Under the pieces are notes generated by a model. The model was not told the origin of the DNA. It saw only the letters and a program-made list of their open reading frames with translations, and did no database searches. The translations under genes were made by a program, and so were the position numbers. Below are positions 2,149 through 13,536 of a DNA stretch of 64,000 nucleotides, one piece after another (positions within the stretch are counted from its first letter, which is position 1; each line of letters starts with the position of its first letter). Location of the stretch: NCBI GenBank assembly GCA_022827685.1, contig JAJEIH010000014.1, forward strand, positions 3,801 through 67,800, in the 5' to 3' direction. Origin of the DNA: Alphaproteobacteria bacterium (lineage in GTDB: Bacteria > Pseudomonadota > Alphaproteobacteria > Bin95).

Positions 2149-4548
2149 ATGGGGGTTGTTTTCATGCGCATTCGCTATCCCGGTTGGGGCAAGGAGGCGG
2201 CAGGCAAGTCCGACTGCAAGCCGCAGACGTCAAGGCGATACGATCCAGACAGGCGGGGGTTGCGGAAAGTTCGGTTGCAGCTGGCGGGATTGCCGACGCT
2301 GCTGTTCCTTTCGCTTGCGTTCTGGGCTCCTCCTCCGCTCGCCCCGGAAGTTATGGCGGCCGCCGGGAACGCCACCGGCAAGCCGGCCGTTTCGAGCGAC
2401 TCGATTGCCGGAAGGGGTTATCGGGCCACGGCGACGCTCGGCGATGTCGCAGACCGCGACGGGATCGATGCCGTGACGCTGAACTACACCTGGCTGCGAT
2501 GCAATGCGAACGGCTCCGGTTGCAACACCGAGATCGTGACGGGCGCGAGCTATACCCTGACCGAGGACGATGTCGGCTTGCGGCTCAGGCTGCGGCTCGA
2601 TTTTCTGGATGAGGATGGCGCGTCCGAATCGCTCACGAGCTTTCCCTGGCCTTCCCGCGCCAACAATCCGATCGGCACGCCGCCTGCGCCGGCCGCGCTG
2701 CAGGTGCTCGGGCACCGGCTGGACCTGACCTTCGACCATGACCTGCAGTCCGGCTCCGTTCCTCCGGCGAGCGCATTCGCGGTCGAGGTGGACGGCCAGG
2801 CGATGCCGGTTGTCGGGATTCACAAGTCTGGTGACCGCACTCTCCGCCTCACGCTGGCGCGGCGGGTGGCGCCGGACGCGACCGTGACAGTCGGCTATAC
2901 CCGGCCCTCCGGCGGGGAAGCGCAGGAAATACGAGGCCCCGGAGGGGTGCCGGCAGAGTCCTTCGCAGCCCTCGGCGTCAGCAATGTCACGCCCGAGAAC
3001 CAGGTCGCCGCGGGCGCGCCGGAGATAGAAGTCGTCAGCATTGCCGACAACGAGATTGTCCTGAGACTGCATGCGCCGGCGGACAATGGCGGTCTGACCG
3101 TCACCGGCTACCAGTACCGTTACGCCAGGGGGGCATCGGTGCCGGAGGCGACGGCATGGACCGACGCCGCGACGACGGCGGTCACGATTTCGGGCCTGCG
3201 CAACAGCACGGAATACACGGTCGAAGCACGGGCGGCGACCGGTCAGGGCACGGGTCCGGCGGCGAGCAGGGCGGCGACGACCACATCGCTTTCGCGCAAT
3301 GCTACCGGCAAGCCCGCCGTTTCGAGCGACTCGATTGCGGGGACGGGCCACCGGGCCACGGCGACGCTCGGCGATGTTGCGGATGCCGACGGGATCGATG
3401 CCGCGACGCTGAGCTACACCTGGCTGCGCTGCAATGCGGACGGCGACGATTGCGATACCGAGATCGCGACGGGGGCGAGCTACATCCTGACCGAAGACGA
3501 TGTCGGCTTGCGGCTCAGGCTGCGGGTCGATTACCTGGACGATGCGGGCACGTTCGAATCGCGCACGGGCTTTGCCTGGCCTTCCCGCACCGACAATCCG
3601 ATCCGCACGCCTCCTGCGCCGGCCACGCTGCAAGTGCTCGGGTACCGGCTGGACCTGGCCTTCGATCAAGACCTGAAGACCGGCTCCGTTCCTCCGGCGA
3701 GCGCATTCACGGTCGAGGTGGACGGCCAGGCGGTGGCGGTCGGTGATGTCGGCATGGCAGCCGCGCGCACCGTCCGCCTCACGCTGGCGCGGCGCGTGAC
3801 GCCGGACGGGACCGTGACGGTCGGCTATACCCGGCCTTCCGGCGGGGGCGTGCGGGAAATACAGGAGCCCGGAGGGGTGCCGGCAGAGTCCTTCACGGGC
3901 CGCAGCGTCAGCAATGTCACGCCCGTGAACCAGGCCGCCACGGGGGCGCCGGACATTTCCGGTACGGCGGAACTCGGCGAGACGCTGATCGCCGGCCCGG
4001 GCACCGTCGCCGACGCGAACGGGCTCTCGGGCGCCCGCATGTCCTACCAGTGGGTCCGCGTCGACGGGAACGGGGAGACGGACATAGCCGGGGCCACCGG
4101 CGGCTCCTATTCGGTGGGCGCGGACGATGCCGGCAAGCGCCTGAAGGTGAGAGCCTCCTTCGAAGACGACGCGCTCTATCCGGAAGCGCGCACCAGCGCG
4201 GCAACGGCGGTCGTGCCCGATACGGTCGGGCCGAGGCTGCTCGGCGGCGGCGCGACCGTCGCCGGCACGGTGCTGGAGTTGCAGTTCGACGAGCCGCTCG
4301 ACACGGCGTCCCGGCCGGCGGCGAGCGTCTTTGCGGTCAGCGTCGCAGGCTCGCCGGCGAGCGTGTCGGCTGTGGCGGTGAGCGGCGACACGGTGACGCT
4401 CACGCTCGCCTCGGCGGTGGGCCGGGGCGAGAGCGTGACGCTCGGCTACGGCGACGGCGACGCACTCGCGCTATTCGGATGCGGCAGCGGTCATCCGGTC
4501 TCTCGGTGTGGATCTCGCCGCTCCGGCGTTCCGTTCGGCGAGCGTTAA
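2149..4548 (+). CDS. Adhesin pseudogene fragment 1 (N-terminal; ends in an out-of-frame tail after the frameshift)
   Basis: ORF-track frame 1. Domain content as listed for the pseudogene. The last ~25 aa (LFGCGSGHPVSRCGSRRSGVPFGER) do not match the repeat pattern and are therefore read as out-of-frame tail. Confidence 0.7.
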   Translation: MGVVFMRIRYPGWGKEAAGKSDCKPQTSRRYDPDRRGLRKVRLQLAGLPTLLFLSLAFWAPPPLAPEVMAAAGNATGKPAVSSDSIAGRGYRATATLGDVADRDGIDAVTLNYTWLRCNANGSGCNTEIVTGASYTLTEDDVGLRLRLRLDFLDEDGASESLTSFPWPSRANNPIGTPPAPAALQVLGHRLDLTFDHDLQSGSVPPASAFAVEVDGQAMPVVGIHKSGDRTLRLTLARRVAPDATVTVGYTRPSGGEAQEIRGPGGVPAESFAALGVSNVTPENQVAAGAPEIEVVSIADNEIVLRLHAPADNGGLTVTGYQYRYARGASVPEATAWTDAATTAVTISGLRNSTEYTVEARAATGQGTGPAASRAATTTSLSRNATGKPAVSSDSIAGTGHRATATLGDVADADGIDAATLSYTWLRCNADGDDCDTEIATGASYILTEDDVGLRLRLRVDYLDDAGTFESRTGFAWPSRTDNPIRTPPAPATLQVLGYRLDLAFDQDLKTGSVPPASAFTVEVDGQAVAVGDVGMAAARTVRLTLARRVTPDGTVTVGYTRPSGGGVREIQEPGGVPAESFTGRSVSNVTPVNQAATGAPDISGTAELGETLIAGPGTVADANGLSGARMSYQWVRVDGNGETDIAGATGGSYSVGADDAGKRLKVRASFEDDALYPEARTSAATAVVPDTVGPRLLGGGATVAGTVLELQFDEPLDTASRPAASVFAVSVAGSPASVSAVAVSGDTVTLTLASAVGRGESVTLGYGDGDALALFGCGSGHPVSRCGSRRSGVPFGER

Positions 4549-5008
4549 CGGCGCCTCCCTGACCGTAACCTTCAGCGAACAGCTGGGCGCTGCCGCCTCG
4601 CTTGCGAATTCTTCCTTCTCGGTGAAGAAGACGCCCGCGGGCGGCCCCGCAGAGACGGTCGCGCTGAGCGCCGACGACGCCCCGGTCATCGACGGCGCCG
4701 CGGTGACGCTCACCCTTGCATCGGCGGTGGCGTCCACCGACAGCAGCATCGAGGTGAGCTACCGCAAGCCGGGGAGTGGCTCGGACAACAAGCTTGCCGA
4801 CAGCGCCGGCAACGAGGCGGCGAGCTTCGCGGACCGGGCGGTGACCAATGTTGGCATTTCGGTTGCGGGCACACCGAGGGTCACGGTTCCGAACGTGTTC
4901 CGGGTGCCGGCAAGGCTCGGCGTCGACCTGGGTTCCGTCAGGGGAACCGAAGGCCTTGGCGCGGCTCGTTATCAGTGGATCCGGGTGGATGCCGACGGCG
5001 CATCAAAC
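4442..5008 (+). CDS. Adhesin pseudogene fragment 2 (frame +1 relative to fragment 1; truncated at the IS left end)
   Basis: Frame 2 reads ...VDLAAPAFRSASVNGASLTVTFSEQLG...TLTLASAVASTDSSIEVSYRKPGSGSDNKLADSAGNEAASFADRAVTN...ARYQWIRVDADGAS. This parallels the module in the downstream fragment (TALTVTFSEELG...TLTLASAIVSTDSGIAVSYTAPDTGSGNRLADRFGNE...). Confidence 0.6.
5001..5008 (+). repeat. Target-site duplication, left copy (CATCAAAC)
   Basis: An identical 8-mer immediately flanks both inverted repeats of the IS (5001-5008 and 8018-8025). 8 bp is the duplication size expected for the IS1595 family. Confidence 0.7.
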
Positions 5009-5035
5009 GGGACTTATATACCAAAATGCCATTTT
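5009..5035 (+). repeat. IS left terminal inverted repeat (IRL)
   Basis: See mobile_element entry. Confidence 0.7.
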
Positions 5036-5039
5036 GTTG

Positions 5040-5068
5040 TTGACACTCGCCCCGGCCCGTCATACATT
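5040..5068 (+). promoter_or_regulatory. Sigma70-type promoter inside the IS left arm (TTGACA-17 bp-TACATT) driving the transposase operon; GGAGGG RBS at 5080-5085
   Basis: Consensus -35 hexamer, 17-bp spacer and a -10-like hexamer, 24 bp upstream of the transposase ATG. Confidence 0.45.
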
Positions 5069-5091
5069 AGTGCCAATACGGAGGGCGAGAC

Positions 5092-6084
5092 ATGGCACGC
5101 AAGGGACCGGGCAAGGCATTCAGGGAAGGCATCAGCCTCAAGGCGCTGATGCGAATGTTCCCGACCGACGATGCGGCGCGGGAGTGGTTTGAAGGGCATA
5201 TCTGGCCGCAGGGTCCGTATTGCCCGCGTTGCGGCAGCTTCAATGTCCAGTGCGGCATCAAGCACAAGACGATGACGCACCGCTGCCGCGACTGCGAAGG
5301 CAAGCCGCGTTTCAGCCTCAAGACCGGCAATGTCATGGAGGGTTCCAAGCTCGGCTACCAGACATGGGCCATCGCCTTCTATCTCGCCATGACCGGCTTG
5401 AAGGGCGTCTCGTCCATGAAGCTGCATCGGGACTTGGAGATTACGCAGAAATCGGCGTGGCACCTTTCGCACCGCATCCGCAAGGCGATGGAGAACGGCG
5501 AGGTTCCGATGTTCCACGGCCCGGCGGAAGCCGATGAGACCTACATCGGCGGCAAGCGCAAGAACATGAGCAACCGGAAGCGGAAAGAGCTGGCCGGGAC
5601 GGGTCGCGGGGCCGTGGGCAAGGCGGCCGTCGCGGGCGTGAAGGACCGGGAGACGAACAAGGTCGCGGCGCGGCGGATGGAAGAGACCGACGCGAGCGCG
5701 CTCCAGTCCTTTGTCCGGGAGCATGTCGAGCCGGGCGCAACGCTCTACACCGATGAAGCCGCCGCCTATGCGGGAATGCCCGAATACGACCATGAAGCGG
5801 TCAAGCACTCGGCCAAGGAGTTCGTGCGGGGCATGGCCTCGACGAATGGCATGGAGAGCTTCTGGGCCGGTCTCAAGCGCGGTTTCGTCGGCACTTTCCA
5901 CAAGTTCAGCGAAAAGCACTTGAGCCTGTATGTCGCGGAGTTCGCGGCCCGGCACAATATCCGCGACAAGGACACAATCGACATGATGGGCGCGGTTGCC
6001 CGGCGCGCAGTCGGAACCCGCCTCCGCTATCGTGACCTCATTGCCGACAATGGCCTGCCGTCCGGCGCAAGGCCCGCCGCATGA
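5092..6084 (+). CDS. IS1595-family (ISXO2-like) transposase
   Basis: N-terminal zinc ribbon (CPRCG...C..C), DDE-type ISXO2-like domain, and the conserved ...NGMESFWAGLKRG... motif typical of IS1595-family transposases. Confidence 0.85.
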   Translation: MARKGPGKAFREGISLKALMRMFPTDDAAREWFEGHIWPQGPYCPRCGSFNVQCGIKHKTMTHRCRDCEGKPRFSLKTGNVMEGSKLGYQTWAIAFYLAMTGLKGVSSMKLHRDLEITQKSAWHLSHRIRKAMENGEVPMFHGPAEADETYIGGKRKNMSNRKRKELAGTGRGAVGKAAVAGVKDRETNKVAARRMEETDASALQSFVREHVEPGATLYTDEAAAYAGMPEYDHEAVKHSAKEFVRGMASTNGMESFWAGLKRGFVGTFHKFSEKHLSLYVAEFAARHNIRDKDTIDMMGAVARRAVGTRLRYRDLIADNGLPSGARPAA

Positions 6085-7511
6085 CGGCCCCGAATTTCGC
6101 GTCCGGCACAGTCTGGACCGGCGACAACCTCCCCATCCTTCGCGGCATGAATTCGGAGTGCGTGGACCTCATCTATCTGGACCCGCCCTTCAACAGCAAT
6201 CGGGACTATGCCGCCCCGATTGGGAGCGAAGCGGCCGGGGCAGCGTTCAAGGACACTTGGACGCTCTCCGATGTTGATGTGCATGAGCATGGGGAGCTTG
6301 CCGACAGGAATCCGGCCGCATACGCGGTGATCGAGGCCGCCCGGCAGGCGCACGGCAAAGGGATGCAGGCATATTGCATCATGATGGCGGTGCGCCTCAT
6401 GGAAATGCGCCGAGTGCTCAAGCCTACGGGCGCGATCTACCTCCATTGCGACCCGACGGCCGCCCACTACCTCAAGCTGCTGCTCGACGGGATATTCGGG
6501 CGCGGCAATTTCCAAGCGGCAATCACATGGCGGCGCACCTACGCGCACAATGACAAGATGTTCGGCAGCCTGTCCGAACAGATCCTCTGGTATGGCAATG
6601 GCGATGGGATCACGCGGAACATTGATGCTGTCGTGGTCCCGTTTTCAGCCGACGAACTCAAGAAGAAATATCCGCACCGGGATAAACGCGGGCAGCATTT
6701 ACGCGACAATCTCATGGGGCCGGGAACAACGGACGGGGAAAGCGGCAGGGCATGGAAGGGCTGCGACCCTACGGAATACGGAAGATGCTGGAGCGCGCCG
6801 AAGACCGGCAAATACGCCCGCTATCTCAACGAAGTGCTGTTGCCCGGCTATCTGGCAATCGAGGGCGTCCATGACCGGCTGAATGCACTGGACGACGCGG
6901 GCTTTATCCACTGGACGAACACCGGCGTTCCGCTGCTCAAGCGGTATGTCATGCCGGGACAGGGGACGGTTCCAGGCGACATATGGACGGACGTTCCGCC
7001 GCTGTCGCGCTCCACAAAGGAACGGACGGGCTATCCGACGCAGAAACCGCTCGCCCTGCTTGAGCGCATCATCCGGGCGTCGAGCAATCCCGGCGGCCTG
7101 GTGCTCGACCCGTTCTGCGGTTGTGCAACGGCCCTGGTGGCGGCGGACAGGCTGCAACGGCAGTGGGCGGGGGTCGACCTGTCGCCGCTCGCCGTGAAGC
7201 TGGTGGACGAGCGGATCGCCGGGGACCGCGGCCTGTGGGGCGGTGCGACCGTCCCTGACGCCCCGCCAGTGCGAACCGACCTTGGCGAGCTTCCGAACTA
7301 CCGCACGCACCGGCATCGGCTCTATGGCGAGCAGGAGGGCGTATGCGTCGGGTGCGAGACGCATTTCCCGTTCCGCGTCATGGAGGTGGACCACATTCTG
7401 CCCCGGTCGCGCGGCGGGACCGACCATGCCGACAACCTTCAACTGCTCTGTTCCGGCTGCAACCGCAGCAAGGGCGGGCGCACAATGGCCGAATGGAGGG
7501 CCGCAACATGA
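6081..7511 (+). CDS. DNA methyltransferase (beta-class N6-adenine/N4-cytosine type) fused to a C-terminal HNH endonuclease domain; IS passenger gene
   Basis: Motif IV DPPF (LIYLDPPFNSN) near the N-terminus precedes motif I FxGxG (LVLDPFCGCATALVAA), which is the beta-class order. The C-terminal ~70 aa carry an HNH signature (CVGCE...HILPRSRGGTDHADNLQLLCSGCNRSKG). ATGA overlap with the transposase stop. Confidence 0.85.
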   Translation: MTAPNFASGTVWTGDNLPILRGMNSECVDLIYLDPPFNSNRDYAAPIGSEAAGAAFKDTWTLSDVDVHEHGELADRNPAAYAVIEAARQAHGKGMQAYCIMMAVRLMEMRRVLKPTGAIYLHCDPTAAHYLKLLLDGIFGRGNFQAAITWRRTYAHNDKMFGSLSEQILWYGNGDGITRNIDAVVVPFSADELKKKYPHRDKRGQHLRDNLMGPGTTDGESGRAWKGCDPTEYGRCWSAPKTGKYARYLNEVLLPGYLAIEGVHDRLNALDDAGFIHWTNTGVPLLKRYVMPGQGTVPGDIWTDVPPLSRSTKERTGYPTQKPLALLERIIRASSNPGGLVLDPFCGCATALVAADRLQRQWAGVDLSPLAVKLVDERIAGDRGLWGGATVPDAPPVRTDLGELPNYRTHRHRLYGEQEGVCVGCETHFPFRVMEVDHILPRSRGGTDHADNLQLLCSGCNRSKGGRTMAEWRAAT

Positions 7512-7696
7512 CCGACAAGCCGCCCTTTGAGCGCCGGGAGCTTCGCGTGAAGCCGAACCGATACCAGCCGACCAAGGCGGAGGTGGAGGAAGTCTTCACG
7601 CCGCCGCGCAAGGCCGACGGCACGGCCTACACCGTCAACGAGGCCGTGCGGACACTCCTGCGGCCCGTGACGGTCGTGGAAGACCCGAAGGCATAG
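7508..7696 (+). CDS. Small hypothetical protein (62 aa; MTDKPPFERRELRVKPNRYQPTKAEVEEVFTPP...), third gene of the IS operon
   Basis: ATGA overlap with the methyltransferase-HNH stop (translational coupling). No recognisable domain. Confidence 0.4.
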   Translation: MTDKPPFERRELRVKPNRYQPTKAEVEEVFTPPRKADGTAYTVNEAVRTLLRPVTVVEDPKA

Positions 7697-7912
7697 CGGG
7701 GCGGCTCTTTGTCGGTGGAGACCGCCTATGCGCCTTCACGCGCACAGTCTTCGGCCCCGGCTTCTTCGCGGTTCGGACGGGTTTGCAGCGGGTCTTGGCC
7801 ATGCCAGCCTCCGGCTTGCGAGCGGAGGCCGATTGACGCTACGGTTCGGGCGGCGGTATCCTTCGCCCTTAGCGCGCTGTCCGCATCGGCCCTCCAAGGA
7901 CTTGCGGAGCCT

Positions 7913-7941
7913 CGCCCCGGTCGTTTGCCGCGACCGGGGCG
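7913..7941 (+). terminator. Perfect 11-bp GC-rich hairpin (CGCCCCGGTCG-N7-CGACCGGGGCG) in the noncoding right arm of the IS; possible terminator or RNA-stabilising structure
   Basis: Inverted repeat read directly from the sequence. No U-tract, so intrinsic-terminator function is uncertain. Confidence 0.3.
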
Positions 7942-7990
7942 AAGTGCATCTAGGCCGGACTATCGCCGATTCGGTCTATGTCGTCAAGCG

Positions 7991-8017
7991 AAAGTGGCAC
8001 TTTCGTATATAATCCCC
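7991..8017 (+). repeat. IS right terminal inverted repeat (IRR)
   Basis: See mobile_element entry. Confidence 0.7.
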
Positions 8018-8025
8018 CATCAAAC
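8018..8025 (+). repeat. Target-site duplication, right copy (CATCAAAC)
   Basis: See the left-copy entry. Confidence 0.7.
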
Positions 8026-10794
8026 CCGGTGAACGTCGGGACGGGCGCGACATACAGGCTCGCTGACGCGGATGCGGGCAAGCGGATCAAGGTGGAGGTG
8101 AGCTACGGAAACGCCACGGTCGGCAGCGCAGCCTGGCCCTCCAGCGGGAGTGTCCGCAGCCGCGAACGCTGCAATGCGCCGGTCCTGTCCGGAGGGGCCG
8201 TGCTGGTCGGATCCGGCAGGACGCTTGCAGTCGGGTCGTACAGCAACAACGAAGGCGACTACTGGGGATATTACGAGGGTGGAAGGACCGGCTTCGGCGA
8301 ACTGGTTTCAGGGGTCAGCTTTGGCGAACTGGGGGACGCCTCGTTCTCGATCGGCGGCGCCGACTATGAGCTGAAAGCGGTCGCAAGCGCCGACAGACCC
8401 GGCGGCGAAGTAGAGATGTACGCCATGCTGGACAAGGACCTTCCGGCCGATCACCGGAGGACGCTGAAGCTGCATGTCTGCGGAGTGGCATACGCTTTCG
8501 GCAAGGCGACGAAGCATGACACCCATGCTCAGTACCAATGGCCCACTTTCCTGGGCCTGGCAGGAAGCGCCGAGCCCACGATCTACCTCTCCCGCGATGC
8601 GGTCGCGCCGACTGTCACTTCGGCCACGGCGCACGGCACGGCGCTGACCGTCACCTTCAGCGAAGAACTGGGCGCGGCCGACTCGCTTTCGAATGCTGCC
8701 TTCTCGGTTGTCAGGACGCCCGAGGGTGGCAGCGAGGAGGCGGTCGCGCTGAGCGCCGACGCCGCCCCGTCCATCGACGGCGCCACGGTGACGCTGACGC
8801 TCGCCTCGGCGATCGTATCCACCGACAGCGGCATCGCGGTGAGCTATACCGCGCCCGACACAGGCAGCGGAAACAGGCTTGCCGACAGGTTCGGCAACGA
8901 GGTCGCGGGCTTTGCGGGCCGGGCGGTGTCGCATGGGACCGCCGACGCGATCCCCGGGCTTTCGGTCGCCGACGCCCAGGTGCGGGAGGGTCGGGGCGCG
9001 AAGCTTGTCTTCACGGTCAGGCTCGACCGGGCGCGCGAGACGCATGTGAGGGTGGATTACGCGACCCGCGACGACACGGCGGTGGCGGGCGCGGATTATA
9101 TGGCCAGGTCGGGCACGCTCACCTTTGCCCGGGGCCAGACCAGAAAGACGGTCGAAGTCACAGTCCTGGACGACGCGCACGACGAGGGCAGCGAGACGAT
9201 GACGTTTGCGCTTTCGAACGCCAGAGGCGCGCGAATCGCCAATGGCGAGGCGACGGGGACGATCAGCAATTCGGACCCGCTGCAGAAACTATGGCTCGCG
9301 CGCTTCGGGCGCACTGTGGCCTCCCAGACGGTCGAGGCTCTGGAGGGGCGTTTCGCCATCGCGTCGGACGCCTCGCCGCGCATGACGCTGACGATAGCGG
9401 GCCAGACCGTGGACCTCTCGCGGATCGGCGACGGTCAGGCGCTGGCGGGGACGCTGACAGGCCTTGCGCGGGCGTTCGGCGCGCCGGACGTCTCGGCGGC
9501 GAACGACAACAGGCCGTTCGCGCGGCGCGGTATCGGTGGGGCGTGGAACGAAGCCGGCGTCTCGGCGCCGGCGCGCGGGATGACGGCGCGCGAGCTTCTG
9601 TCCGGGAGTTCGTTCCACTTCACGACCGGAGATGCGTCGGGCCTGGGCGGAGCGATGACCGGTTGGGGCAAGGTGCTGTCGGGCGGGTCGAGCAGTTCGC
9701 TGTCCGGCGGGCTGTCGTTGGCGAGCGAGACGGCGACCGGCGTGCTCGGCATGGACTGGGAGCGGGACAGGCTTCTGGTCGGGGTGGCGCTGTCGCGAAG
9801 CGTCGAGACGGGCAGCGCGTCGTTTGCGCCGACGGGGTCGCAATACGACATCGAGGGCTCGGTTTCGATGGTGACGCCCTACATGCGCGTGCGGGCGGGC
9901 GAGCGGCTGTCGCTCTGGAGCGCGGTCGGTTCGGGCAGCGGTTCCTTGTCGCTCTCGCATGGCGGCGGCTCGCAGATTGCGGACATCGCCATGCGGCTTG
10001 CGGCTGCGGGCGGTCGTGCGGAGTTGCTGCGGCCCGGGGCAGGCGGCGGGTTTGCGCTGGCGCTGAAGACGGATGCGTTCTTTGTGCGGAGCGAATCGGC
10101 GCGGGTATCGACGCCGGGCGTGGGCAACCTCGCGGCGGCGACGGGCGATGCGAGCCGTGTGCGGGCGGTGATGGAAGGGTCGCGGGCGTTCGCGCTGTCG
10201 GGCGGCGGCGCGCTGGAGCCGTCGCTGTCGCTCGGTCTGCGCCATGACGGCGGCGACGCCGAGACCGGCACGGGCGTCGAGGTCGGCGCCGGGCTTTCGT
10301 GGTCCGCGCCGACGGCGGGGTTGACCTCGGACCTGCGCCTTTACGGGCTGGCGTCGCACGAGGCGGGCGGTTACGACGAATGGGGGGCGAGCGGTTCGCT
10401 GCGGCTGGCGCCGGATCCGTCCGGTCGCGGCCTGTCGCTGTCGATGACGCCGTCATGGGGCGCCCGGGAACAGGCCGGGCGGCTGTGGGGCGCGGCGCCC
10501 GGCGCATTGGCCGGGAACGGCGGCGGGGGGCAGCCGGGCGGGCGCCTCGACACGGAACTCGGCTACGGCCTGCCCCTGTCGCACGGCATGACCGGCACGC
10601 CCTATGCGGGCTTCGGGTTCGGCGAGGCCGGCGCCCGGAGTTACCGCCTCGGCTGGCGGCTTGCGTCGGACCGGCTGCAATCCTTCTCCCTGGACATCGA
10701 GACGACCCGCCGCGAAGCCGCAAACGCCGCCGGACCGGGGTTCGGGGCGGCGGCAGAGCACGGTATCGGTCTCAGGCTGGCGGCCCGCTGGTAG
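8026..10794 (+). CDS. Adhesin pseudogene fragment 3 (C-terminal passenger + Calx-beta + autotransporter beta-barrel)
   Basis: In frame with the CCG GTG AAC that follows the right target duplication. Calx-beta signature. ~500-aa Gly/Ser-rich beta-domain ending in W. Confidence 0.75.
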   Translation, partial: PVNVGTGATYRLADADAGKRIKVEVSYGNATVGSAAWPSSGSVRSRERCNAPVLSGGAVLVGSGRTLAVGSYSNNEGDYWGYYEGGRTGFGELVSGVSFGELGDASFSIGGADYELKAVASADRPGGEVEMYAMLDKDLPADHRRTLKLHVCGVAYAFGKATKHDTHAQYQWPTFLGLAGSAEPTIYLSRDAVAPTVTSATAHGTALTVTFSEELGAADSLSNAAFSVVRTPEGGSEEAVALSADAAPSIDGATVTLTLASAIVSTDSGIAVSYTAPDTGSGNRLADRFGNEVAGFAGRAVSHGTADAIPGLSVADAQVREGRGAKLVFTVRLDRARETHVRVDYATRDDTAVAGADYMARSGTLTFARGQTRKTVEVTVLDDAHDEGSETMTFALSNARGARIANGEATGTISNSDPLQKLWLARFGRTVASQTVEALEGRFAIASDASPRMTLTIAGQTVDLSRIGDGQALAGTLTGLARAFGAPDVSAANDNRPFARRGIGGAWNEAGVSAPARGMTARELLSGSSFHFTTGDASGLGGAMTGWGKVLSGGSSSSLSGGLSLASETATGVLGMDWERDRLLVGVALSRSVETGSASFAPTGSQYDIEGSVSMVTPYMRVRAGERLSLWSAVGSGSGSLSLSHGGGSQIADIAMRLAAAGGRAELLRPGAGGGFALALKTDAFFVRSESARVSTPGVGNLAAATGDASRVRAVMEGSRAFALSGGGALEPSLSLGLRHDGGDAETGTGVEVGAGLSWSAPTAGLTSDLRLYGLASHEAGGYDEWGASGSLRLAPDPSGRGLSLSMTPSWGAREQAGRLWGAAPGALAGNGGGGQPGGRLDTELGYGLPLSHGMTGTPYAGFGFGEAGARSYRLGWRLASDRLQSFSLDIETTRREAANAAGPGFGAAAEHGIGLRLAARW

Positions 10795-11039
10795 GCGCAG
10801 CGGACGGTCCCGGCGCGCGGACGGCAGGGACCATTCAACAGCAACGGCTGGACGGAGGCCCGCCGCATGCATGAGGGAACCCGCGCCTTTTGACCTGCCG
10901 GCCTCACACATCTGCCTGCGGCGGGTTCGCCTCGTATGACACCCGCCTGCCCCGGTCGTCCGTTCCCGTCCTCCTCCTGAGCAGCGGCGCGGCCGTGTAT
11001 CGAAGGAGCTTGCAATTATCCTGTCGATCCAACGAGTTG

Positions 11040-11760
11040 TAAGAAAACTGCCCGGTATTTCCATCTTTTGTTCCTTCATGAGCTTGACTTTCAGCGAAAT
11101 GGTGTAGAATAGGCATGAGAGAAAGGCGGCTCCCGGGGCCGCCTTTCGGCTTTTCTGCAGAAAGCATGGCTGGGGGCCGCAAACCCCCGGCGCGAGCGGA
11201 CGGGGAAGGTACGTCCTCCGCCCGGCCCGCTGCCGCGCGCACGGGCGCGCGGGCAATCAGGCGCGCGAGCCGCGCCGCCGCGAAACGCCCGCCCGCCCGC
11301 GCACGCAGCCCCGCCCGCGATGACGCGCGAAACAGGGACACCCCGTCCCGCCCTTGGCTTGGAAGGAGATGGCATGGATGACCGAAACCAACCCCCGACC
11401 CCGCTGGCGCCGGACACGCCGGGCTCGCCCATCTGCGCCAACTCCTCGCCGTAATCGACTGGAGCGTCACCTCCCGTGAGCCGCAACCCGGCGCCGCCGG
11501 CGGAAGGCCCCGCAGCGCCCCTCCATGACACATCATGACATCTGCCGTGGAGGGGCCGGACCCGCTGCCCCGCGCACGCGGGCGCGCACGCACAGGCAGG
11601 CGCGCATTATGCGCGCGGGAGAAGCGCTCCTCCGGGGGGCGTCCGGGACCATGGACCGAAAGGAAGCTGCAATGCCTTGCGAATGACCGGGGCGGAGACC
11701 GGCCCCATGACGAAAACATGACACATCATGACATATCCTGACACTTCCGCCGGTCTCCCG
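11040..11760 (+). repeat. Intergenic repeat element, copy A (+ orientation; longest and most divergent copy; two heptad clusters)
   Basis: Shares with copies B and C: a TTGAC(T/A) promoter-like module (11084-11110), the block GCGCGGGCAATCAGGCGCGCGAGCCGCGCCGCCGCGAAACGC, the block CGCGATGACGCGCGAAACAGGGAC, and CATGACA heptads at 11524/11534 and at 11706/11717/11727/11737. Confidence 0.6.
11706..11743 (+). promoter_or_regulatory. Array of four 10/11-bp-phased CATGAC(A/G) heptads (copy A; a second mini-array of two heptads lies at 11524-11540)
   Basis: catgacgaaaa catgacacat catgacatat cctgacactt, read directly from the sequence. Confidence 0.55.
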
Positions 11761-11841
11761 GCCGCCGCGCTGGCGGAGGGTGCTGCCGGCATACCGGATG
11801 CAAACCGGCCGGGGCGGCGGACGGCCCGCCGCCCCGCTGCG

Positions 11842-13536
11842 TCACTCCGGCTTGCGGAAAAGCTGGATGCCCCAGGCCAGCTGTCCGGCATCCGCGGCTT
11901 TCACCCAGTTCTCGAGACCGACGGCCATCCTGTCGAGATATTCGGCCGAGGCGCCGTTTTCGCGCAGCCTGTCGTAACCGGCCATAAGGTCTTCACGCAC
12001 CCGGTCGTAGTGGGTGCGGAGATGGCCGGTCATGTCCTCCTGCGCCAGCACCTCGAAACCCAGCGCCTGCGCCGCCTCGCGGTAGAAGCGCATGGAGCCG
12101 AGGCTGTTGAGCTGGAGCCTGTCATACACGGGCTGGAGCACGCCGTCCGGCACGTCGTCCGCCTGCATCGGGTCGGTAAAGACGAAATGGCCGCCCGGCT
12201 TCAGCACGCGCCGGACTTCGGCCAGCACCCTGTCCCGCTGGTCCGAGTGCAGGATGGCGTCCTGGCTCCATACCGCGTCGTAGCTGGCGTCCGGGTCGGG
12301 GATATCCTCGAAGACGCCATGCACTACCGATATCCGGCCGCCGAGCTTGGCCTGCCGGTTCCTGGCCCGGTTGGTGTCGTTCTGCGTCTCGGAGATGTTC
12401 AGGCATGTAGCCGTGCAGCCGGTCCGCCCGACGACCCGCCGCATCGAGCCGCCATAGCCGGCGCCGATGTCCAGGATACGGGTGTCGGGGCCGATGTCCG
12501 GCAGCATCGCCATCATCCGGTCGACGGTTTCGGCGCTGGCCTCGCGAATGTCCCGTGTCGTCTCGTAAATGCCGAGATGCAGGTCCTCGCCGCCCCAGAC
12601 CATCGAGTAGAACGTGTCGGCGTCGTCGCTGTCGTAATAGTCCTCGGTGATGTCGCGAACGTCGCTCTCGCCCTCCTCGCGGACGCCGCCGCCCCAGCGC
12701 ACGACATGCAGCGTGGACTTCTCGGCGACATGAATGAAGAAGTCCGGCTCGTTCTCGGCGTAGGTCTCCTGGAAGTCGCCATAGGTGCGCACCCGCGCGA
12801 AACCGGCCTCGCTGAGCAGGCGGCGCACATAGTTCTTGCGGATCGGACTGAGATTGAGCGTGTAGCCGGAGCCGTCGGCGAAGCTGTATTTCATCCTCAC
12901 GAGGCTGTCGTCGATATATTCGGGCTCCGCATTCACCTCGTCGCCGCAGTAATAGTATTTGTGCTTGGACGAGAAGCCCTCATCCAGCATGGCGTCGTAA
13001 TTGCGCTGGTCCAGGATCAGCATCCCGTCATGCTTCAGCGCGGCGTAGAACTCGGCCAGAGCGCGGCGGCGGTCCTGCTCTTCATGCAGGTGGGTGAACG
13101 AGTTGCCGAGGCAGATGATCGCGTCGTACTTGCCCTGGATGTGACGGTTCAGCCAGCGCCAGTCGGCCTGGACGGTCTTGAGGATCAGCCCGCGCGACCT
13201 TGCGTTCTCGAACGCCTTGGCCAGCATCGTCGCCGACCCGTCGCTCGATGTCACGTTGAAGCCGGCCTCGGTCAGCCGCACCGAGTGGAAGCCCGTGCCG
13301 CAGGCGACGTCCAGCACGGTTTCCTTGCCGCGGGCGCGCAGCACGTCGATGAAGAACTGCCCCTCGCTCTCGGCGCGCGCCATCCAGTCGATCAACTCGT
13401 CCCACTTCTCCACGAAGGAGAGGATGTACTCGCCGCGGTAGAGATCGGTATCGCGGTCCTCCAGCGGGTCGTCGCTGTAGCTCTGACGGTCGAGCGCGAA
13501 TTCCGTGTTCCTCGTCAACAGGGACATATCTGGCAT
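11842..13536 (-). CDS. Fused glycine/sarcosine N-methyltransferase - sarcosine/dimethylglycine N-methyltransferase (glycine betaine synthesis from glycine)
   Basis: Two class-I SAM methyltransferase domains (VLDVACGTGFHS... and ILDIGAGYGGS...). The 564-aa length and domain order match the fused GSMT-SDMT enzymes of halophiles (for example Actinopolyspora-type). Confidence 0.75.
   Translation of the reverse strand: MPDMSLLTRNTEFALDRQSYSDDPLEDRDTDLYRGEYILSFVEKWDELIDWMARAESEGQFFIDVLRARGKETVLDVACGTGFHSVRLTEAGFNVTSSDGSATMLAKAFENARSRGLILKTVQADWRWLNRHIQGKYDAIICLGNSFTHLHEEQDRRRALAEFYAALKHDGMLILDQRNYDAMLDEGFSSKHKYYYCGDEVNAEPEYIDDSLVRMKYSFADGSGYTLNLSPIRKNYVRRLLSEAGFARVRTYGDFQETYAENEPDFFIHVAEKSTLHVVRWGGGVREEGESDVRDITEDYYDSDDADTFYSMVWGGEDLHLGIYETTRDIREASAETVDRMMAMLPDIGPDTRILDIGAGYGGSMRRVVGRTGCTATCLNISETQNDTNRARNRQAKLGGRISVVHGVFEDIPDPDASYDAVWSQDAILHSDQRDRVLAEVRRVLKPGGHFVFTDPMQADDVPDGVLQPVYDRLQLNSLGSMRFYREAAQALGFEVLAQEDMTGHLRTHYDRVREDLMAGYDRLRENGASAEYLDRMAVGLENWVKAADAGQLAWGIQLFRKPE

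Follow-up and report, generated by a model that had tools for sequence, protein, structure and literature searches.

Transporter insertion sequences (tIS) are units built like insertion sequences (IS) which also carry passenger genes; both the IS1595 and the IS66 family include such units (preprint 10.1101/2021.05.26.445724; PMC3129680, which cites Siguier 2009). Other units bounded by inverted repeats (IRs) carry restriction-modification (R-M) genes: Furuta et al. (2010), who also listed IS-associated R-M genes and solitary methylase genes (citing Siguier 2009), reported R-M units lying between IRs whose insertion with an 8-bp duplication was proven by comparison with empty sites, among them one from X. 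oryzae and one from N. gonorrhoeae that has 26-bp IRs and contains, besides a Type IIG R-M homolog, a COG3677 transposase-like gene (PMC2853133). Here we analyse a 64,000-nt stretch (the window) of contig JAJEIH010000014.1 from Alphaproteobacteria bacterium (assembly GCA_022827685.1), in which positions 5009–8017 are, with a probability of about 0.9, a 3009-bp tIS of the IS1595 family that is inserted in a surface-protein gene and carries, as cargo, a fusion of a DNA methylase and an HNH nuclease domain (methylase-HNH).

As both tIS and IR-bounded R-M units have been described, the window element belongs to a known class, and the insertion itself is ordinary biology, very cleanly documented. 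The anatomy of the element, its target-site duplication (TSD), its empty site, its multiple insertion sites and the conservation of its catalytic residues are direct observations. We did not find described a beta-class methylase-HNH as recurrent cargo of two IS families, the 62-aa open reading frame (ORF) which belongs to the backbone of the element, or the exchangeable slot between the transposase gene and this ORF. With IS1595 tIS the element shares a transposase with a zinc ribbon and DDE(K) residues, imperfect IRs with the tip GGnnnTTAT, an 8-bp TSD and passengers placed inside the IRs. With the units of Furuta et al. it shares modification and restriction genes within a short IR-bounded unit, an 8-bp duplication and proof by an empty site; unlike them, it has an intact transposase, is found at more than one site, and encodes its cargo as one beta-class methylase-HNH chain and not as a Type IIG enzyme with an S subunit or separate R and M proteins.

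The element, its ends and its empty site

The left inverted repeat (IRL, 5009–5035, forward strand, GGGACTTATATACCAAAATGCCATTTT) and the right inverted repeat (IRR, 7991–8017, reverse strand, reverse complement GGGGATTATATACGAAAGTGCCACTTT) match at 22 of 27 positions; the likeness ends past position 27 when the arms are compared by script, and a repeat search finds the same pair. A degenerate IR pattern allowing up to 3 mismatches matched only these two arms in the window and nothing in 100 dinucleotide shuffles. Immediately outside the arms lie identical 8-bp copies of CATCAAAC, at 5001–5008 and 8018–8025; neither strand of the window has a third copy. The terminal IRs and the 8-bp direct target duplication of the IS1595 family are both present, in agreement with the first-pass annotation, which had proposed 27-bp imperfect repeats and an 8-bp duplication from the sequence alone.

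Passenger-carrying IS1595 members measure about 1.75–4.75 kb, and the window element falls within this range; it is ~2.5–3 times as long as a transposase-only IS built on its 993-nt transposase gene. The first-pass annotation had called it several-fold larger than a minimal IS1595 member, which was correct as to its passenger size and slightly generous as to the factor; the three genes it had placed inside the IRs are there, at 5092–6084, 6081–7511 and 7508–7696, all on the forward strand. Between the last of these and IRR runs a non-coding spacer (7697–7990) which is poorly conserved and varies from 0 to 300 nt in length among relatives. A structured RNA or conserved site in this spacer was considered and dropped, given its lack of conservation among relatives and the absence of any Rfam match (E up to 1) over 4800–8300. 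No further copy of the element was found in the window with the IR pattern, with tblastn of the three proteins or with the second-site flank described below, and megablast found no near-identical element DNA in plasmids, so that this is not a known plasmid-borne IS.

The source of the window is a metagenome assembly, which we compared with ENA, NCBI and Logan assemblies. A protein search identified an intact ortholog of the target protein (P0241, 96% amino acid identity over 100% of the restored query) on contigs of NCBI assembly GCA_022820525.1, a related metagenome-assembled genome, and of the sibling ENA sample SAMN22237334 (L090 and L091). Window positions 4425–5008 and 8018–11413 align to these contigs at 93–96% nucleotide identity, with the element absent; on L090 the corresponding blocks are 5119–5695 and 5688–9072 (95% nucleotide identity). 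The two blocks abut on both contigs and share just one CATCAAAC, and because they overlap only in this single 8-mer, the 8 bp must have been duplicated upon insertion. The locus in L090/L091 is a direct empty site, as expected of the clean insertion that had been claimed, and it contradicts the idea, raised in the same annotation as a possible refutation, that the element is native in all relatives. Removing the element, that is, joining 5008 to 8026, restores an open frame of 1089 aa from 4508 which reads YQWIRVDADGASNPVNVGTGATYRLADADAGKRIKVEVSY across the junction (RVDADGASN followed by PVNVGTGATYRLADADAGKRIKV). A junction-like internal repeat, YQWVRVDGNGETDIAGATGGSYSVGADDAGKRLKV, sits in the ORF at 2149–4548, so that the continuous adhesin frame and its internal parallel were both correctly recognised at first reading.

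We consider it very improbable that the segment is native or ancient at this locus, or an artefact of assembly. The metagenomic source would favour an artefact, as would one contig (L002) that joins the left flank of the adhesin gene to a foreign right flank; this contig could be a chimera, and it indicates that assemblers have trouble with this repeat. Nevertheless, the empty site with its single 8-mer is present in two independent records (an NCBI metagenome-assembled genome, MAG, and an ENA sample), and the junctions recur in independent ENA and Logan assemblies, both in L001/L003, the right one in L004 and the left one in L002. Furthermore, the TSD is exact, the restored frame is free of stops and 96% identical to the intact ortholog, and the element, at 64% GC, is below both the window (68%) and the target gene (about 70%).

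The 5′ part of the interrupted gene (4442–5008, forward strand) aligns to P0241 from residue 378 onward at 96% amino acid identity, and the 3′ part (8018–10794, forward strand) encodes an SWM repeat, a Calx-beta domain and a predicted C-terminal outer-membrane beta-barrel. Pfam finds SWM repeats, fn3/Ig-like repeats and Calx-beta in the target protein. The first-pass annotation had called it an autotransporter adhesin. The whole target ORF gave no match to an autotransporter profile in Pfam or NCBIfam, and the residues encoded at 9301–10791 did not match the Pfam Autotransporter beta-domain even at E up to 5. An AlphaFold2 (AF2) model of the C-terminal 497 aa has helices followed by ~19 long strands arranged as a barrel (pLDDT 76.5, pTM 0.72); in Foldseek this model resembled outer-membrane barrels in general, matching TonB-dependent receptors with a template-modelling (TM) score of about 0.35, and the beta-domains of BrkA, EspP and Hbp with target-normalised TM scores of 0.5–0.6 over about 245 residues. 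The C-terminus is therefore best described as a predicted outer-membrane barrel, although not clearly of the 12-strand type. The earlier label holds in so far as an autotransporter-like architecture is a fair description of the protein, while membership of the classical type Va is not established. The same barrel domain, which matches no barrel-family profile, is kept in many giant proteins with SWM and Calx-beta domains (56–60% query coverage).

The target gene carries a second lesion at about 4425–4445, ~570 bp upstream of the IS, which is either a 4-nt difference or a recombination junction relative to L090: the ORF at 2149–4548, whose N-terminus resembles a signal peptide, is out of frame with the segment from 4442 that matches the ortholog, and homology between the window and L090 is lost upstream of about 4425. 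The IS is therefore not the sole lesion of this gene. Downstream of the adhesin, and unrelated to the insertion, 11842–13536 (reverse strand) encodes a 564-aa protein with two tandem SAM-methyltransferase domains (Methyltransf_11/25/31, CMAS).

Transposase, insertion sites and shared backbone

The first gene of the element (5092–6084) encodes a 330-aa transposase with an N-terminal zinc ribbon and an IS1595-type DDE domain, both above Pfam cutoffs (Zn_ribbon_IS1595 PF12760, 2.8e-09; DDE_Tnp_IS1595 PF12762, 5.4e-36), and scores 175 bits against a cutoff of 75 for the NCBIfam model transpos_IS1595 (NF033547), which bears out the family assigned at first reading. In an alignment of 19 homologs, residues C44, C47, C65, D148, D221 and E255 do not vary, and conservation at C68 and K262 is at least 90%; D148, D221, E255 and K262 correspond to the IS1595 catalytic pattern of D, D and E (or N) with K or R ~7 residues later. 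The IR tips GGGACTTAT and GGGGATTAT together with the DDEK residues also agree with the tip pattern ggnnatTAT and the DDEK signature of the ISNwi1 (‘ISNwi1+’) subgroup, a lead to where the element may belong. The nearest IS1595 transposases on plasmids of cultured bacteria are less than 40% identical, which places the window element apart from them in a divergent, mostly uncultured lineage.

Just inside IRL, upstream of the transposase gene, the best sigma-70-like site in the region (TTGACA-17-TACATT, 5040–5068, forward strand) matches the promoter consensus at 10 of 12 positions, this being a consensus match only, and GGAGGG precedes the ATG at 5092 by 4–9 nt. Since 4-nt ATGA stop/start overlaps occur at both gene junctions (transposase/methylase and methylase/small ORF), the three genes probably form a single operon, which the promoter-like site inside IRL would drive. 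From what is established for DDE transposases, the enzyme would bind the IRs and join the ends of the element to target cuts staggered by 8 bp. The insertion into the local AT-rich 8-mer CATCAAAC duplicated the 8 bp and split the surface-protein gene.

The window's own contig is also represented in ENA: exact copies of the transposase and methylase proteins are encoded on scaffold_45 of sample SAMN22237339, whose first 8316 nt, the locus compared, are identical to window 3769–12084, and the same proteins occur on small contigs of the sibling sample SAMN22237338. In two independent assemblies of the latter sample (L002 and L005), a copy of the element that is 99.97–100% identical to that in the window has its IRR followed by TTGAAAAATGACTTATGCACC and not by the adhesin gene; the flank lies at 3084–3137 in L002 and 2207–2235 in L005, where the element is followed by TTGAAAAATGACTTATGCACCATGTGTCC and the second junction joins IRR to TTGAAAAATGAC; this flank is absent from the window. 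An identical element next to another right-hand flank means that the community holds at least one more insertion site, and the TSD of this second copy is expected to be TTGAAAAA. It should be weighed against this account that L002, with its adhesin left flank, could have arisen through chimeric assembly of two copies or through recombination, and that the second site may belong to this genome or to another strain. The whole unit moves, given that the empty site lacks all 3009 bp and an identical copy sits beside another flank, and it holds inside its IRs, between the transposase gene and IRR, the methylase-HNH gene, which probably has no part in transposition. Its first description as a recent, mobile and passenger-carrying element has stood up to these comparisons.

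IRs with a perfect 8-bp TSD were found in 11 related elements: L008 (AAAAAATG), L009 (CATTCGTT), L021 (CAAAATTA), L029 (AAACAGAA), L036 (CAAATGAA), L040 (TTCGGGAA), L050 (TTTTGAAA), L071 (TTTTTTTT), L092 (TTTTATTT), L173 (CTCAAGGG) and L174 (CTCGCAGG). The IRL tip GGGnnTTATATAC is common to L006–L009, L021, L036, L040, L050 and L071, while the first 19 nt of IRR are those of the IRs of L006 and L007 and of the IRL of L008, the other arms of L008 and L009 differing by 1 nt. Over nine sites (the window element and eight relatives, with L092, L173 and L174 left out) the duplicated 8-mers have a mean GC content of 24% within flanks of 56–74%, and we infer a preference for local AT-rich targets. 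Two tIS copies that are 99.86% identical (L173 and L174, each at 2358–5912) lie in one 3.25-Mb genome with different TSDs. Their target sequences (CCCTCAAGGG and CCCTCGCAGG) are oddly similar, which hints at a preferred or repeated target.

Homologs of the transposase at 79–89% identity come with nearly the same IRs (GGGGMTTATATACGAAAGT) and, towards the right end, with an ORF homologous to that of 62 aa, the genes in the middle being unrelated: the cargo is a 228-aa ORF in L008, a 220-aa ORF in L009, and other ORFs on the opposite strand in L006 and L007. In these relatives homology to the window element ends at the stop codon of the transposase gene and restarts at the core of the small ORF. 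As read from about a dozen elements, which do not amount to a systematic survey, the backbone is modular and consists of IRL, transposase gene, variable cargo, conserved 62-aa ORF and IRR. An integron-like recombination site at the cargo boundaries was rejected, as the junctions of five related elements share only the 3′ end of the transposase gene and the small ORF.

The conserved 62-aa ORF (7508–7696, forward strand), whose start overlaps the methylase stop, sets the window element apart from described IS1595 tIS and had no match in Pfam, NCBIfam or PADLOC. Its homologs hold the same right-end position whatever the cargo (L006–L009, L011, L021, L028, L036, L071 and L111), and among the loci examined it occurs in tIS contexts only. 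The family has 28 representatives among 1.84 billion clustered proteins, of which 27 are about 34–106 aa long, the exception being an 810-aa protein that matches weakly over 29 residues; its consensus is VRVKPxxYQPTKAE-EE...RKADGS..TPEE.AR..LRPV..VEDP. The AF2 model is of modest confidence (pLDDT 71) and had no fold match in the PDB. We infer that this ORF belongs to the backbone and not to the cargo, and the protein is probably an accessory or regulatory factor of the element.

Several relatives depart from this layout. Among IMG/VR contigs, which hold 488 matches to IS1595-type transposases, one (L092) has a transposase gene, methylase-HNH and a TSD; this element (4915–8914) is three-ended, having IRL at 4915 and two IRR copies, an inner one that ends at 7715 and an outer one that ends at 8914, of which the outer shares the TSD with IRL. 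Such a structure may show how extra DNA is captured. Two loci lack a transposase: L097 (996–1490) is a 495-bp IR pair with TSD AACGGAAA, similar to a miniature inverted-repeat transposable element, and L046 (319–3100) has five IR-like copies clustered in the same orientation. The 228-aa protein that opens the cargo of L008 (5996–7337) is weakly similar to N6-adenine methylases (PADLOC mad2, 2e-5; Pfam Eco57I/MTS below cutoff). The L008 element adjoins genes resembling those of cyclic-oligonucleotide-based antiphage signalling systems (a DncV-like nucleotidyltransferase and Cap15) and that of L173 adjoins a Type I HsdM (1–2155), neighbourhoods which suggest defence islands.

The methylase-HNH gene on and off insertion sequences

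The passenger gene (6081–7511, forward strand), whose start overlaps the transposase stop, encodes 476 aa with a beta-class N6/N4 DNA methyltransferase (Pfam N6_N4_Mtase, 7.4e-39, residues 28–374, interrupted by about 130 aa that the profile lacks) joined to a Cys4 HNH domain at the C-terminus (1e-11, residues 422–465). Across 22 homologs of 63–87% identity, DPPF, DPFCGCAT, C422-x2-C425, D437-H438, N452 and C457-x2-C460-N461 show no variation. The relatives by sequence in the PDB are the methylases MboIIA, CcrM and RsrI and, for the C-terminal part, HNH domains of Cas9/IscB type. From its DPPF motif and beta class, the methylase probably makes N6-methyladenine, and the HNH domain is predicted to be a zinc-stabilised nuclease in which all catalytic residues have been kept.

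Methyltransferase and nuclease are also joined in one chain in the Type IIC/IIG enzymes, such as MmeI, Eco57I and BcgI, which combine an N-terminal PD-(D/E)XK nuclease with a gamma-class methylase; BtgZI is an exception, with an alpha-class methylase and a C-terminal PD-(D/E)XK variant (PMC4081073). The window protein resembles them in its one-chain layout and in having no conserved separate partner gene nearby. Its domains differ, with a beta-class methylase at the N-terminus, in which DPPF precedes DPFCGCAT, followed at the C-terminus by a Cys4 HNH domain whose nearest relatives are of Cas9/IscB type, and because of this difference from the known combined R-M enzymes we did not file the cargo as Type IIC/IIG.

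Homologs of the methylase-HNH protein number in the thousands: 8000 candidates, every one at E ≤ 0.001, were scored, and those listed share its architecture. We found no characterised member. When one genome was scanned for each species, at least 585 relatives were returned, and the locus counts that follow refer to the best 80 of these. Nearly all of the 80 are from MAGs of taxa typical of marine-sponge microbiomes, including Poribacteria, Dehalococcoidia/SAR202, Latescibacterota and Poriferihabitaceae, and taxon and bin names point to a sponge habitat. An IS1595-type transposase adjoins the gene at ~14 loci, nearly always directly upstream on the same strand. All-against-all clustering of neighbour ORFs found no other recurrent partner gene, and a Pfam scan of 115 neighbour ORFs at transposase-less loci found no partner, the top families (housekeeping enzymes, TPR repeats and phage-type integrases) being present in only 3 members. 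A conserved partner, be it a separate nuclease, a specificity subunit or another transposase, was ruled out by these two analyses. IS-less cassettes were likewise rejected, since a search for IRs with 8-bp TSDs around the 80 loci gave only IS1595 and IS1 elements. At two loci, L172 (5797–6947) and L173 (6005–6817), a 270-aa ORF without a Pfam match follows closely after methylase-HNH; the L172 copy lies between ISNwi1-like IR sequences (GGGAATTATATAG and GAGAATAATATAC) and may be another small element.

In 2 of the 80 loci (L089, 5627–8386, and L060, 3696–7395) a methylase-HNH homolog of ~50% identity lies in an IR-bounded element with a perfect 8-bp TSD (CAGATTTG and GTTCGTGC, respectively), as in the window. 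These elements differ from that of the window in their transposase, in their IRs (GGTAGTGTCTCAGTTTGA) and in the lack of the 62-aa ORF, and the transposase gene lies downstream of the cargo in L089, and upstream of it in L060 and in the window element. We take the transposases and IRs to be IS1-like, the transposases by their DEIWSF and DG motifs. Siguier, Gagnevin and Chandler reportedly treated IS1595-family transporter IS in 2009, and the IS1 and IS1595 families are said there to be related. Co-divergence of transposase and cargo was rejected (r = −0.14 over 28 pairs, from pairwise identities of eight tIS); between the window and L173, for instance, the cargo is 73% identical and the transposase 53%. 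As the identities are uncorrelated, the pairing of transposase and cargo has been repeatedly reshuffled and not inherited as a block.

These distributions bear on whether methylase-HNH, the 62-aa protein or both serve transposition itself, through a second-strand cut or through methylation of the ends that times transposition to replication, in the manner of Dam methylation at IS10 and IS50. Such a role would fit the translational coupling of these genes to the transposase gene, the way in which the small ORF keeps to the backbone when the cargo changes, and the presence of methylase-HNH on elements of both the IS1595 and the related IS1 family. However, L008 and L009, with transposases 79–89% identical to that of the window and the same IRs, have perfect TSDs and other cargo; L029, L040 and L050 are complete tIS with TSDs in which no small ORF was detected; and most methylase-HNH copies have no transposase nearby. 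Since close relatives transpose with other cargo, this role is weakened, and we regard it as improbable.

The simplest reading, though one to which we give somewhat less than even odds, is that the cargo is a one-chain R-M-like module. Such a module would protect the host genome by methylation and cleave DNA that lacks the mark, giving the element a defence value, a stabilising addiction effect, or both. Several observations weigh against it. The gene is solitary at 64 of the 80 loci, with no transposase or recurrent partner, and its biology is therefore independent of the IS; the nearest phage and plasmid relatives from cultured hosts (~40% identity) correspond to the methylase part only and lack the HNH; the known combined R-M enzymes are built otherwise, as described above (PMC4081073). 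PADLOC called no complete defence system, matching the cargo to MTase_II, MTase_III and oMTase profiles only and the transposase and small ORF to nothing.

Some of these observations would fit equally well if the cargo were instead an orphan anti-restriction methylase that guards the DNA carrying it, as phage methylases do, with the HNH domain used for nicking or for homing-type spread of the gene itself. Residues 11–380 have as their closest annotated relatives stand-alone methylases of actinophages and rhizobial plasmids, the solitary copies of the fused gene lie among unrelated housekeeping genes as a self-mobile gene would, and methylase-HNH occurs on two IS families with a history uncorrelated with that of the transposase. 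On the other hand, no conserved homing-type target or flanking repeat was found around the solitary copies, and the catalytic and zinc-binding residues of the HNH domain are invariant alongside the methylase motifs. Because both sets of residues are invariant together, both activities appear to have been kept in one chain, which fits a functional coupling, and an orphan methylase is in our judgement a slightly less probable account of the cargo than the R-M-like module. Going beyond the one-chain R-M-like module as such, we may speculate, with similar reserve, that methylase-HNH is a selfish one-chain R-M unit which has repeatedly recruited simple transposons, that the IS1595 backbone is a cassette platform, and that the 62-aa protein is a new accessory factor.

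Implications for mobile DNA modification

The window holds a well-documented case of transposon inactivation of a large surface-protein gene in an uncultured bacterium, with filled, empty and second sites all present in public assemblies. It also points to an understudied methylase-HNH fusion, with thousands of homologs of the same architecture, which simple IS elements of two families move between genomes of many phyla, and to a modular tIS backbone with a conserved micro-protein. Should the fusion prove to be an active one-chain R-M enzyme, the elements that carry it would be minimal mobile units of defence or addiction and a source of new DNA-modifying enzymes. If the cassette reading of the backbone is also correct, IS1595 elements of this kind would serve as a platform for DNA-modification genes and for other cargo.

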